This document shows positions 13,411 to 49,036 of a stretch of 64,000 nucleotides of DNA, in pieces (the first letter of the stretch is position 1; every line of letters starts with the position of its first letter). Position numbers and translations under genes: made by a program. The notes under the pieces were generated by a model that worked only from the letters and a program-made list of their open reading frames with translations, made no database searches and was not told where the DNA came from. The DNA lies in IMG/VR virus record IMGVR_UViG_3300046171_000314, positions 83,879 to 147,878 of that record; one strand, given 5' to 3'. The stretch is from a virus.

Positions 13411-13722
13411 TTGTCTGATAAAGAGTTAGAAGATCGTATACTAATGACAAAGAGGTTGGCACACAGGTGGGTGAAGAAACACATTAAGCCTGAGAACCGA
13501 TTGATTGTTTATTATGGACACGTAGAGATAAGTCGTGTCCCATCTTTGTTGCGTAGTTTTCGAGACTCTAAGATCACTATGGCAGGCATTCCACCTATCC
13601 CTGATCTTGGCATCACAGAAAGATTTGATTGCTTTGAGATATGGACAGAGAATAAGGAAGGTTTGATAGCCCTTGACAAGTGGCTGTCTGATCGGGGATT
13701 TGAAACATCAGGGGTATGGTAA
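13411..13722 (+). CDS. Hypothetical late protein with RLAHRW motif
   Basis: AGGAGG RBS; follows late-type motif at 13370-13384. Confidence 0.65.
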   Translation: MSDKELEDRILMTKRLAHRWVKKHIKPENRLIVYYGHVEISRVPSLLRSFRDSKITMAGIPPIPDLGITERFDCFEIWTENKEGLIALDKWLSDRGFETSGVW

Positions 13723-14154
13723 ATGTCTTCACAAAGAATACAATCAGAGTTTGTTTATAAGTCTGTCACATCAGCGGCTGAGACCTATTACTTCACGATA
13801 CGTTGCGACACCGAGAGCAATCTCAGTGTTCGGAATATACAAAATCCCGCAGGGCTTATTGTAGATTCTATGTCTTCTTTACCCTCTGAGGTTATTACAG
13901 ATATCTCGGATGCAATGTCAGTTGTTCGTGATCTGCTCTCCATTAATTCTAGAGTCAATGGCACAATAACTTTCACCGCTGAAACTTCTGTTACTGTTTC
14001 ACTGCCTGAGGCGATGTCAACGGCAGGCTATTCTGTTCTTCTTGATGTTTCAGACTTTGTTCTTTTTCGTGTCACTTCAAAAACAACAACATCTTTTGTT
14101 GTTCAAAGTTCTACGACATATACGGGAACGATTCTTTATTCTGTTTTTAATTAA
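13723..14154 (+). CDS. Virion protein with C-terminal H-lectin/gp53-like beta domain
   Basis: TITF...TVSLP...YSVLLD...KTTTSF domain shared with the ORF at 14724. Confidence 0.55.
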   Translation: MSSQRIQSEFVYKSVTSAAETYYFTIRCDTESNLSVRNIQNPAGLIVDSMSSLPSEVITDISDAMSVVRDLLSINSRVNGTITFTAETSVTVSLPEAMSTAGYSVLLDVSDFVLFRVTSKTTTSFVVQSSTTYTGTILYSVFN

Positions 14155-14162
14155 GGTACAGC

Positions 14163-14724
14163 ATGGACATATACATATTTGACTTTGATGGTACTTTGAT
14201 GCGAACACCTGAGGAAACCCCTTCTTGGTGGAAAGACCCTGCTCCTTTTAGTTGGCACAGTAATCCTGTTTCACTATCTCCTCCTGTTGTTCCCTCAAAG
14301 CCAAGCGGAAAACATTGGATTTCTTGGGTAGCCAAAGAAGCAAAGAGGTCTTTGCAAGACCCCAATGCAAAAGTATTTCTTGTCACTGCGAGAGTTTCTT
14401 CTATGAGGCAGAGAATACTTGAGATTCTGAAGAGTAAAGGTATAGTGTTCGATGGAACTTACTTCAATCCGGGGGACCGATGCTTCGTCTTACAAGAAAA
14501 AGGTTTTTCAAGATATTCAAGCGAAGTACCCTAACCCACAAGAGGTTCACATCTTTGAAGATAATCACCTCAATGCTTATGTTCCTGCCTTAGAAAAAAT
14601 GTTTCCCTTCTCGAAGGTCTTTGGGCATGGTGTAAAAGACAGTCAGCATCCGATAGAGCCTGAGGGTATCCCTCAGGACTTAGCCTTAAGGGTTGCTGAT
14701 CGATACTTGAATAGGAGATACTAA
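14163..14724 (+). CDS. HAD-family phosphatase (RNA-repair HAD-like), split by an apparent +1 frameshift near 14471-14475
   Basis: DFDGTL and LVTAR in the first frame; K and FED motifs in the second frame after the G5 run; ends RVADRYL. Confidence 0.75.
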
Positions 14725-46318: not shown

Positions 46319-46356
46319 TTGGTTTATATTTTTGATTGGTTTAGATTGAGGTTTTT

Positions 46357-47267
46357 ATGAGTGAATATGATGAAATCATTGAGGAAGAGTCTGAGGAAGA
46401 ATCTGAAGAGGATCATCTTGCAGTTAGTAGGATGCCTGAGACCCAAAGACGACAGATGAACAAGTCTCGCAAAAAAAACAAGGGCAAAAATCAGGGTGGA
46501 AAAAGAAAGAGAAGAAAAAAAGACAAGAAGAAGCGAAGAGAGAATAGATCAAAAATAAAGAGGTACAATAAAAGAAGGAATAAAAAGCCTTGGGGGGGGC
46601 TAGGGGGGCAGCCGAGAGAGTAGCGGCAAGATGGCTCAATGCGGACTTTCTCTATGAGAAAAGACCCCCTGAGGAAGATGAGATTTATTATCCAAGTGGC
46701 ACAAACTATTCTCCGAGTGGGGGTAATGGTTACTATAAGTTCGACCCTTCTAATAAAGAAAGAAAACCCTCTGAGGTTCAGAACACAGATGGGGAACAGC
46801 CTGATGTTGGAAACACATCAAGGGTTGTACCGAATGGGCAGTTTGTGAAAGCCTCTGACCATCCTCAATCGCTCAAGGACTTGGTTAATCGAGAGATAGA
46901 TTTGATAGGAGAATTGAATAAATTGGAAAAGGCTTTCAAAGAAACAGAGTCTTCTCGAAATGGCGAACGCCTAAAAGTTCATCGCTTGAGCAGAGAACAA
47001 TCTGAACACTTTAAGAAGATACTTATATTACTTGATGAGGAAGCCCACATTGAACAAGCAGTCAGCCTCGCAGATGCGATTGACCTACTAGGAAACCTCC
47101 GCAGAGAACTACTTATCCGACGGGAGAGTGTGCGAGAAAAACTTAGAGAAATCAGAAAAGAAATAAAAGAGTGGAACGAAGCAGAAGATAAAAGAATGGA
47201 AAAGATGATGAGAGAGATGTTCAATCGAGTAGCCCATCGATACTTACAGGGGAACTTGAAATGCTAA
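46357..47267 (+). CDS. Acidic-basic and coiled-coil protein, apparently one gene broken at the G8/G6 runs (46592-46608)
   Basis: ORFs 46357-46623 and 46590-47267 overlap at the G runs; RVAARW and RVAHRY motifs. Confidence 0.55.
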
Positions 47268-47906
47268 CTGCTATGGGCGATGTAATGAGAGAGGCATACA
47301 AGCGAGGTTGGATAACAACTCGTGATGGAAACATCTCCGTTATGATGACCGAAAGGAACATCTTGTATATCACACCAAGCGGTTGGCGAAAAACCATTCT
47401 TCATCCTGAGCATCTTATTCGTATTCCAACGAATGGCGACCTCTTGAACTTGGGCGAGACTGAAAACGCAAGTGGTGAATTAGAGATGCATTGGTTGTTA
47501 CAAAAAGACTATTCTCGAACTAGGGCGATAGTCCACCTTCACCCAACATACACAATCGCTGCTATGTTGAGGGGCTTCAATCTCCAACACTTATCAAACC
47601 ATTTTCCCGAACTTTCTCGATACACAAGAGTGGGAAAGACAGTGCCTATTCTCCCTGTTACATCTCCTGAATTAGCCACAGCAACAGCAGCGTCTTTTGA
47701 GGTGTCTAAGAAAGGAAAGTTGTCTTGTGATATTGTTGGACAAACGGGGCACGGAGTTTGTGCTGCCGCTAAGAATCCTTGGGGATGCCTTCGAACACAT
47801 TGAAAGGTTAGAGCATATTTGTCAAATCACATTGGCAAGTGGTGTTAATCCTTCTTTTTTTACACCGCCTCCTATTAATCGGAGTGGTAGGGAGTCTATG
47901 TTATGA
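47261..47906 (+). CDS. Class II aldolase/adducin family protein, apparent +1 frameshift near 47781-47784
   Basis: DGNIS, ITPSG, SGELEMH, HLHP, HGV; the WDAFEHIERLEH helix continues in the next frame. Confidence 0.8.
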
Positions 47907-49036
47907 TTAAAAAAGTTGCTTTCAGATATATTTTGGCAAAGACTATGGATGAACTGATCGCAGGCACATCTCGAAAGGTTGTCGATAGAGCCTCTTCTCT
48001 CTCTGTAATTAACAACAATGATGGGTCATTTACTGTCACAGGAGGAAAAGGTAAGCACACGGTAAAGGTTCAAAGAAAGGGCGTTGATGTAAAGGTGTCT
48101 TGTACCTGTAATGGTTGGGTTTTTCAGGGTTCGGAATACTATGCCGATAAGAGAAACTATTTATTAGGCAAGCCGAAGGGAACTCTCACTCCACCAAGAA
48201 TAAGAGATCCGAAGGGAATAAACCTTGTTTGCAAACACGTTGTAGCAACCTTTCAACAGTTGCAAGCGGCAATGATTCGTATGGGTAAGAGAGAAAACAT
48301 CCTCAAGCACAAGATGGTACAAAAAGATGTCTGCCAAAGTCCTACTAAGTGGGACAATGTTCTCGATGTAATTGAGTTTGACGACGAACTAGATTTCACG
48401 ACAAAAGATGAGTTCTTGATAGCGGATACTATAAGAAAAGACCAAGAATACCAATCGAGTTTCAATGTCCAACACCCTAATGTTTATAGGAAAGGCAGGA
48501 AGGTGAAGGATAAAAACCAACTTATTAAGGCTAAATTTATTATTAGTTTCACAGAGCACGCTATTACTCGTGTTATTGCACGAGGTTTCAACACAAAGAC
48601 GTTGGTAATTGGTATACTTAGAGCAATGGATGACCCCAAGAAGTTCGCTAAGAAATTCACCAAAGGCAAAAAAAATGATGGCTATATCAAGGTCGATAAC
48701 GCTTTGTGCGTGCTTTATACACACAGTCTTAATAATCCCCTTTCTTATCGAAATAAAGACAATAATCCTGACGCTATTTCGTACATAGAGGAGGTGGATA
48801 AGATTGTTCTAGGGAAAAACATTCATTTTCGAGTTCACACTGTGTATGACCCAAACGACAAAGGTTATGGCAATCCTTTGGGTGCAGGGAACGCAGGACA
48901 GTACCTTCCTTGTTTGGTAGAAACAGACGAGAACTATGACACTCACGATTCGAAAAAACAAGACTCGGATTATGATTGGAAAGCAAGGTTTGGTACTATG
49001 GTCAAGAGCCTAGCCGATAGATGGCTGCTCCAATAA
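47903..49036 (+). CDS. SWIM zinc finger fused to an FTEHA..R (DUF4258/BECR-like) domain
   Basis: CTC...CKH; FTEHAITR; terminal KVAFRY and SLADRW motifs. Confidence 0.65.
   Translation: MIKKVAFRYILAKTMDELIAGTSRKVVDRASSLSVINNNDGSFTVTGGKGKHTVKVQRKGVDVKVSCTCNGWVFQGSEYYADKRNYLLGKPKGTLTPPRIRDPKGINLVCKHVVATFQQLQAAMIRMGKRENILKHKMVQKDVCQSPTKWDNVLDVIEFDDELDFTTKDEFLIADTIRKDQEYQSSFNVQHPNVYRKGRKVKDKNQLIKAKFIISFTEHAITRVIARGFNTKTLVIGILRAMDDPKKFAKKFTKGKKNDGYIKVDNALCVLYTHSLNNPLSYRNKDNNPDAISYIEEVDKIVLGKNIHFRVHTVYDPNDKGYGNPLGAGNAGQYLPCLVETDENYDTHDSKKQDSDYDWKARFGTMVKSLADRWLLQ

Follow-up and report, generated by a model that had tools for sequence, protein, structure and literature searches.

A short helical peptide, referred to here as the tag, recurs at the ends and internal junctions of otherwise unrelated proteins encoded by IMGVR_UViG_3300046171_000314. 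The DNA analysed, hereafter the window, is the right-hand 64 kb of this 147,878-bp viral contig (64,000 nucleotides, contig positions 83,879 to 147,878). The extended consensus of the tag is small-Ser-x-x-R-V-A-x-R-Y/W-L/M, also written [A/S]-x-x-R-V-A-x-R-[Y/W]-[L/M]. Docking of accessory proteins to one common partner is the best-supported reading of this peptide, and the common partner most probably lies in the assembling prohead. In its full form, the proposal is that the tag is a portable docking helix that loads basic accessory proteins into the prohead as internal cargo and is sometimes clipped off afterwards; the probability of this proposal is put at roughly 50%. The argument for a prohead partner is circumstantial, and draws on the position of the carriers in the morphogenesis module, their basic character, a tagged ART-PolyVal protein in a relative, and candidate clip sites beside the tag.

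The tag was captured as a strict regular expression, R[VIL][AV]xR[YW][LMIV], defined on this contig only. In the 229 open reading frames (ORFs) of the whole contig, it has 10 matches, as compared to 0.036 expected from 1000 per-protein shuffles. Nine of the ten fall within 15 residues of a protein end, although such positions account for only 16% of residues. The same expression finds 22 matches in five related genomes (15 of them terminal), as compared to 0.41 expected. A loose pattern run over all six frames of the window gives ten matches, all on the plus strand and all inside real ORFs, while a back-translated DNA pattern gives 9, 6, 4, 3, 2, 2, 1, and 1 matches in relatives and 0-1 in the reversed control. 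A position-specific profile was iterated on this contig and the complete relative G2, with a threshold of 12.6, at which shuffled proteomes yield ~1 match. This profile recovers 33 copies in the two genomes; 17 of these are in 13 proteins of this contig, with six outside the window. In full-text literature searches, no publication describing a tag of this kind in huge phages was found.

An earlier reading of the window from its letters alone (the original prediction) had listed eleven strong instances of the peptide, all of which are present in the sequence and in the ORFs to which they had been assigned (Table 1). The comparison with shuffled proteins, which it had named as a way to refute the idea, places the motif far above that background, with most copies at termini. 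Its weaker forms, VRIAK, DRIADLF, IRIAQ, and VRLAK, fare differently: their profile scores are -11.5 to +1.2, well under the threshold, so that the scaffold and the protease, to which the last two belong, are without a tag.

The tag is conserved as a peptide and not as DNA, because synonymous codons differ among copies: arginine is encoded by CGT, CGA, AGA, or AGG, valine by GTA, GTT, or GTC, and alanine by all four of its codons. This free variation rules out a DNA-level repeat or a recombination junction. The protein ends that carry the tag are also real ends. Huge phages are known for stop-codon recoding, which could create false termini. This is ruled out by three observations: all three stop codons are used, with C-terminal tags ending mostly at TAA; additional stops come within a few codons after several C-terminal tags, in two cases immediately; and the coding density is ~95% under the standard code. 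Upstream of every N-terminal tag is a start codon that has a properly spaced Shine-Dalgarno-like sequence, as in ORF 13411-13722, which has a TTG start and AGGAGG upstream. Two N-terminally tagged ORFs, including p46590, contain no ATG after the tag. The protein p16540 starts at the GTG at 16540, with AGGAG at -11, and hundreds of homologs conserve the peptide upstream of Met11. The database entry calls this gene from Met11 (192 amino acids, aa) and thus loses the N-terminal tag, which indicates that automatic annotation under-reports N-terminal tags after GTG and TTG starts.

The central claim of the original prediction, that one short helix-forming peptide sits on unrelated proteins at either terminus or at a domain junction, is upheld by four lines of evidence: masked sequence comparison, AlphaFold helices, a change of terminus within the HAD family, and a map of gene fission and fusion. 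When the tags are masked, none of the 78 pairs among the 13 carriers of this contig is related at E<0.1 in an all-against-all BLAST comparison, which rules out the signature of a paralog family. The 13 carriers of the relative G1 are likewise unrelated once masked, and those of G2 include one three-member paralog group only.

In the AlphaFold2 model of p16540 (69-sequence alignment), a helical core spans residues 54-176 and terminal helices that contain the tags span residues 3-14 and 190-201, with predicted local distance difference test (pLDDT) values of ~77-85. These terminal helices are joined to the core by low-confidence linkers (pLDDT <50) and are not packed into the domain; the predicted template modelling score (pTM) is 0.32, and the two tags have no confident common fold. 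In the model of p32446 (20-sequence alignment), the tag is an isolated helix at residues 108-115 within the disordered stretch that leads from an SH3-like beta-barrel to a zinc ribbon. Taken together, the models put the tag on a disordered linker as a predicted short helix, either terminal or at a junction. A fold search with the p16540 model found only generic helical hairpins, and a search of a protein atlas found nothing. The most conserved part of the 699-member p16540 family is at residues 17-47 (window 16588-16680), which read RTAGEVRF-x-KD-x-S...WAW. Despite this conservation, AlphaFold predicts the segment to be disordered (pLDDT below 50), and it may fold only on a partner.

Within ortholog families the tag is portable and independent of position. 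The window's HAD_SAK_1 protein begins directly at the catalytic DxDxT motif and ends RVADRYL-NRRY. The G2 ortholog, a single 202-aa ORF, instead has RVATKYM at residue 12, ahead of the HAD core. In G5, whose ortholog is called as a longer ORF, this peptide is at residue 66 and again precedes the core. The C-terminus is untagged in both orthologs. Across 55 orthologs in the database, the tag is N-terminal in 43, absent from 11, and exclusively C-terminal in one; no protein has a tag at each end. Members of the p16540 family differ in their N-terminal tag (RVARRAM, RVADRYL, RIADAYL, and KIANRYL), and only 15-20% of them have one at the C-terminus. The G1 ortholog of ORF 13411-13722 keeps its tag as RLARRWV. 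The Pfam HAD_SAK_1 profile is split over two ORFs of the window that overlap at 14452-14534. The frameshift between them may reflect an assembly error, a pseudogene, or programmed slippage; the G2 and G5 orthologs are single ORFs.

The tag also follows the breakage and joining of genes. In relatives, the region downstream of the head gene encodes single proteins of 338-879 aa, in which the modules of p45539, p46590, and p47903 follow one another in order; these polyproteins include GEQYGHP, basic-tract, SWIM-like, and Dps-like modules, and p45539 is homologous to their N-terminal parts. The C-terminal RVVDRYL of p45539 aligns with an internal junction tag, RVASMYL, in the relative L013, where a Dps-like domain follows. 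In the relative L035, the SWIM module starts with an internal SVVSRYL, to which the N-terminal KVAFRYI of p47903 aligns. At the position aligned to the start of p46590 (RVAARWL), the fused relative L003 has no recognisable tag. A search of a big database for longer fused homologs of p47903 found none, though local loci show fusions. A second such region is at 29537-33012, where four ORFs (695, 89, 128, and 188 aa, the first two in the same frame with one stop between them) have as their counterpart in relatives a single protein of 942-1171 aa, encoded upstream of the protease. The C-terminal part of that protein comprises the SH3-like beta-barrel, a Gly/Pro linker, the tag, and an invariant KKALYW with a CPKC...CPSC zinc ribbon. 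This tag, RVARAWV in p32446, is the sole copy conserved in all six genomes. Tags occupy polyprotein junctions, and each polypeptide that is separate here keeps at least one tag. The tag thus accounts for a pattern of fission and fusion in which every new polypeptide retains a tag of its own.

Several properties of the carriers suggest a destination inside the head. Their genes in the window are located immediately upstream of those for TerL and portal, next to the protease, and in the interval from the head gene, which encodes the major head protein (MCP), to the tail genes. They are mostly small proteins, and some resemble effectors. With tags masked, the carriers of the six genomes are basic, with a median isoelectric point (pI) of 9.0 as compared to 6.2 for other proteins (Mann-Whitney p = 5e-7; 50 vs 1701 proteins), and p45539 has long Lys/Arg tracts. 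Most carriers have no assignable family, the recognisable ones in the window being the HAD_SAK_1 phosphatase and a SWIM-like protein. In the complete 376-kb relative G2, a 358-aa protein (L093; 15198-16274, minus strand) combines an N-terminal tag with an ART-PolyVal ADP-ribosyltransferase domain (E = 2e-12), and another tagged protein has a weak 2H/CPD-like match. Among the tagged proteins searched with Pfam, none has a peptidase domain.

The surroundings of the tag are consistent with its removal after loading. Of 40 terminal tags, 12 have the candidate clip site [KR]-x-[AS]-[SAG] on their core side, as compared to a background of 4-7%; an earlier, cruder test gave 6 of 33 against 1.5. The core of p16540-family proteins has a near-invariant RTAG-E on one side and KxAS on the other, at the C-terminus. 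In HAD-family proteins, K-[KT]-[SA]-S follows the tag, and the start of the untagged orthologs roughly coincides with the end of that site. Tags also differ between genomes in a manner resembling dialects. Terminal tags here end [YW]-L (7 L, 1 M) and those of G2 end Y-M (5 M, 0 L), a difference with Fisher p = 0.005 in a post hoc test on small numbers whose anchor leaves positions +5 and +6 free; G1 tags have F, H, W, or Y at +5. Such dialects fit co-evolution with one partner per genome, because the carriers are largely unrelated and without cross-genome orthologs. As too few carriers have such orthologs to follow drift ortholog by ortholog, only the pooled test is reported.

If the tag loads internal cargo, the process likely involves: binding of the helix to a common prohead receptor, which could be the scaffold or core, the inner face of the HK97-fold shell, or the large conserved protein encoded upstream of the protease; loading of the tagged polypeptides as internal cargo by this contact; cleavage, in part of the cases, by the prohead protease at the core-side [KR]-x-[AS]-[SAG], removing the tag; and packaging of the cargo with the DNA, with which it may also be ejected. 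The capsid destination, the single receptor, and the clipping are the parts of this scheme that we infer.

A number of observations weigh against prohead loading. The recognisable core virion proteins (MCP, portal, protease, and sheath) are untagged, and tagged genes are scattered over the genomes of relatives rather than limited to head modules. In this contig, 9 of 13 tagged genes are in late-type units, which does not differ significantly from the 86 of 161 found for plus-strand genes, and the late-type promoter motif is absent from relatives, so that the late/early comparison does not extend to them. The original prediction had reported no copy in replication genes. This holds for the recognisable replication block of the window, but one strong copy (contig 17173) is located in a block with early-type promoters. 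The protease cannot be assigned a family or a specificity, 70% of terminal tags are without the candidate clip site, and the dialect comparison has the limits given above. Finally, the back-translated DNA pattern finds no motif in phage G or Tunturi_5, and the near-complete relatives G3 and G4 have only 2-3 tags each, from which it follows that the tag system is not essential to the clade. There are no cultured relatives with the tag, and the p16540 family matches only an uncultured record.

Some of these same observations would also fit a tag that docked its carriers elsewhere, for example to a host factor, to a phage or host chaperone or protease (as a terminal degron or a recognition motif), to an intracellular phage compartment, or to nucleic acid. 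In that case, its role would be to collect accessory proteins, or to regulate them, within the infected cell and not in the capsid. The dispersal of tagged genes in relatives, the strong copy in the early-type block, and the lack of significant late-gene enrichment all agree with this alternative. Basic carriers also fit general nucleic-acid binding, and a terminal position is typical of degrons and adaptor motifs. It is nonetheless unlikely. The densest clusters of tags are inside the morphogenesis module, and the only universally conserved copy is in the large protein beside the prohead protease. Copies at internal junctions are ill-suited to a terminal degron, and no transmembrane or compartment-shell homology was found among the carriers.

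A distinct possibility is that the tag has no targeting role and serves mainly as an exosite for the prohead protease, marking cuts in polyproteins and propeptides. The tag does occur at the junctions of polyprotein modules; however, most copies are 3-10 residues from a terminus, where a cut would free only a few residues. Likewise, [KR]-x-[AS]-[SAG] is enriched beside the tag, and the p16540 core is bracketed by RTAG and KxAS sites, but the large majority of terminal tags have no such site. Those HAD orthologs that have a tag keep exactly one, at either end, on a single-domain enzyme that needs no separation. After gene fission, moreover, both new ends have full tags and not half sites. The exosite explanation is accordingly considered improbable.

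Tags could also bind each other as a helix zipper, by which modules that are fused in relatives would re-associate non-covalently here. The arrangement of neighbouring genes lends itself to this idea, with the C-terminal tag of 45539 facing the N-terminal tag of 46590, and that of 46590 facing 47903, where relatives have one polyprotein; the fused L003 is untagged where 46590 begins. Against this, the tags are not complementary, because all share the same charge pattern with two arginines on one face. Many carriers, such as the HAD and ART proteins, are single-domain proteins with a single tag and no split partner, and AlphaFold gave the two p16540 tags no confident common fold (pTM 0.32, linkers below pLDDT 50). 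A zipper therefore appears quite improbable.

That there is no tag at all is very improbable: although the motif was defined post hoc on the same sequence and recoding occurs in huge phages, chance (10 matches vs 0.036 expected, replicated in independent genomes as 22 vs 0.41), a DNA repeat (codons differ among copies), paralogy (no carrier pair is related with tags masked), and false termini from recoding (three stops in use, extra stops after C-terminal tags, ~95% coding density) are excluded as explanations.

Returning to prohead loading, a bolder version of this proposal can be offered tentatively. The ~10-residue RVAxRY(L/M) helix, at either end of a protein, would act as a position-independent cargo code that leads to the capsid via one receptor, with a dialect that co-evolves in each genome, while a second peptide (LRxK-IRLAH-xxPELRKxLLPLL) would sort other cargo. 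If true, this code would be a phage counterpart of encapsulin loading and a handle for packaging chosen proteins in very large capsids. Giant phages carry dozens of non-structural proteins in their heads, and to our knowledge no short transferable loading signal is known outside T4. In the phiKZ and SPN3US groups, propeptides are long and dissimilar (PMC5694885). A tag of 7-10 residues at either end would allow the cargo lists of uncultured huge phages to be predicted from sequence alone. Here, the predicted cargo comprises basic DNA-associated proteins, a HAD_SAK phosphatase of the RNA-repair type, and SWIM proteins, together with the ADP-ribosyltransferase in a relative. The tag could also be used as bait for the receptor and as a handle for loading foreign proteins into large capsids.

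The closest functional comparison is with the capsid targeting sequence (CTS) of T4, which is found on IPI-III, Alt, and gp24, loads them into the prohead core, and is removed by the protease gp21 (PMC5694885). Alt, which is loaded through the CTS, is an ADP-ribosyltransferase (PMC5694885, PMC5512222). Both peptides are short and occur on otherwise unrelated proteins. Among the proteins loaded in T4 are basic internal proteins and an ADP-ribosyltransferase. The carriers of the tag are likewise basic, one relative encodes an ART-PolyVal protein that is tagged, and many tags have a candidate clip site on their core side. In contrast, the CTS is strictly N-terminal, spans 10-20 residues, and ends L/I-x-E, whereas the tag is N-terminal, C-terminal, or internal and reads RVAxRY/W-L/M with the candidate site [KR]-x-[AS]-[SAG]. 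No consistent L/I-x-E follows the tags, and the protease is not recognisably gp21-like.

A second parallel is with encapsulin cargo-loading peptides, which are terminal, sit on flexible linkers, are transferable, and dock diverse enzymes, including ferritin-like proteins, to the interior of an HK97-fold shell (PMC8346489). The tag is similarly terminal on a flexible linker and portable (HAD and p16540 families), the MCP is HK97-type by family match, and Dps/ferritin-like domains lie beside tags in the polyproteins of relatives. Encapsulin peptides, however, have a composition rich in Gly, Ser, and hydrophobic residues, bind in an extended form, and are usually found at the C-terminus; no sequence similarity to the tag was seen. 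Encapsulins also have neither DNA packaging nor a maturation protease, whereas the phage has TerL, portal, protease, tail sheath, and tail terminator. The tag would be a functional counterpart of the T4 CTS, and a parallel to encapsulin peptides. It is not a member of either family, because it works at either end and at junctions, differs in sequence and in candidate clip site, and belongs to a phage with complete packaging and tail machinery. The encapsulation peptides of bacterial microcompartments are amphipathic helices of ~18 residues, N- or C-terminal, joined by a poorly conserved linker to several unrelated enzymes. Their shell, sequence, and biology are different, and the analogy is one of design only.

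The carriers also recall the polyvalent proteins described by Iyer, Burroughs, Anand, de Souza, and Aravind (2017), long multi-module proteins encoded beside virion genes, for which packaging, delivery together with the DNA, and cleavage into effectors are predicted; their typical modules include ART and 2H domains (PMC5512222). The tagged polyproteins of relatives, with SWIM, Dps-like, and basic modules, and the tagged ART-PolyVal protein may be comparable to these. That work, however, covers architectures and processing peptidases and not a shared address peptide, and in the present genome many modules are encoded separately, by small genes whose products are individually tagged. The polyvalent-type domains recognised were ART-PolyVal (G2), HAD_SAK_1, and a weak 2H match only.

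A second portable peptide, LRxK-[LIV]-IRLAH-xxPELRKxLLPLL, forms the N-terminus of five window proteins that are unrelated outside it (Table 1). The original prediction had linked the core of the tag to this IRLAH leader family, but the leader scores -3 to +5 against the tag profile and is a different peptide. In G1, a 565-aa protein (L119; 44263-45960) has the IRLAH peptide at both ends and another protein has an internal copy; in L016, the peptide ends a SWIM-containing polyprotein. By the regular expression used, it occurs only in this contig (G0) and in G1.

Table 1. Features of the window; positions are window coordinates unless the contig is named, and scores are those of the tag profile
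Feature	Position	Strand	Details
Tag RLAHRWV	13453-13473	+	Residues 15-21 of 103-aa ORF 13411-13722 (N-terminal); score 23.0
HAD_SAK_1 phosphatase gene	14163-14724	+	ORFs 14163-14534 and 14452-14724; broken by frameshift at GGGGG run near 14470
Tag RVADRYL	14689-14709	+	4 residues from C-terminus of HAD phosphatase; score 25.2
p16540	16540-17148	+	202 aa; tagged at both ends; widespread family (699 homologs); no Pfam match
Tag RIADRYM	16552-16572	+	Residues 5-11 of p16540 (N-terminal), then near-invariant RTAGE and core
Tag RVAQRYL	17113-17133	+	4 residues from p16540 C-terminus; KTAS before tag
TerL	22003-23820
Portal	24942-26627
Topoisomerase IB, eukaryotic-type	28378-29535		Pfam Topoisom_I, E = 4e-24; between portal and protease, behind late-type promoter motif
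Tag RVARAWV	32776-32796	+	Internal in ORF 32446-33012 (p32446), at junction of Gly/Pro linker and zinc-ribbon module
Head maturation protease	32958-34415		PHROG 'head maturation protease' match
HK97-type major head protein (MCP)	36415-37287		Phage_capsid / PHROG major head protein match
p45539	45539-46318	+	259 aa; very basic (pI 10.8); GEQYGHP module and Lys/Arg-rich tract
Tag RVASAWI	45914-45934	+	Internal in p45539, at junction of GEQYGHP module and basic tract; score 25.3
Tag RVVDRYL	46286-46306	+	3 residues from p45539 C-terminus
p46590	46590-47267	+	225 aa; tagged at both ends; TTG 46590 is the only possible start
Tag RVAARWL	46617-46637	+	Residues 10-16 of p46590; score 27.2
Tag RVAHRYL	47226-47246	+	6 residues from p46590 C-terminus; score 22.0
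Class II aldolase/adducin-domain protein	47261-47803		Untagged; Pfam E = 6e-21; between two doubly tagged genes
p47903	47903-49036	+	377 aa; SWIM-like CxC...CxH module (weak Pfam SWIM match); tagged at both ends
Tag KVAFRYI	47912-47932	+	Residues 4-10 of p47903; score 20.2
Tag SLADRWL	49007-49027	+	2 residues from p47903 C-terminus; weakest accepted copy; score 16.7
Minor tail protein	56126		Comparison with Tunturiibacter phage Tunturi_5
334-aa protein	58590-59594		Start resembles phosphate-1 loop of actin/Hsp70-like ATPases (GVGLDLGT); no PHROG match
Tail terminator	59718		Comparison with Tunturi_5
Tail sheath	61646		Comparison with Tunturi_5
IRLAH-peptide proteins	4810-5154, 5169-5519, 27567-27905, 54062-54553, 54585-55067
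ATAAT-N4-CTATAAA	28346, 31660, 35698, 49048, 54029, 61603; contig 26898, 48251, 70029

The window has 42% G+C and nearly all its genes on the plus strand, and the contig is part of the genome of an uncultured huge phage that belongs to the phage G lineage. This assignment follows from the MCP, which is 86% identical to that of an uncultured 485-kb phage (LR745208), 49% to that of Tunturi_5, and 39% to that of Bacillus phage G, and from close relatives on hundreds of IMG/VR contigs, some up to 376 kb. The protease has only its PHROG match, without a Pfam or PDB family, and is not placeable in a characterised family. For ten other genes, namely 35717, 20571, and eight located downstream of the tag block, PHROGs gave no match.

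Three classes of promoter-like sequence were observed. The bipartite ATAAT-N4-CTATAAA is located 15-50 nt upstream of head-module and neighbouring genes, and is not conserved in relatives. A second class, TTCGGTA, lies ahead of replication genes. The third, ACGTAAA-N11-CGTATAG, has eight copies, all within contig 4-22 kb.

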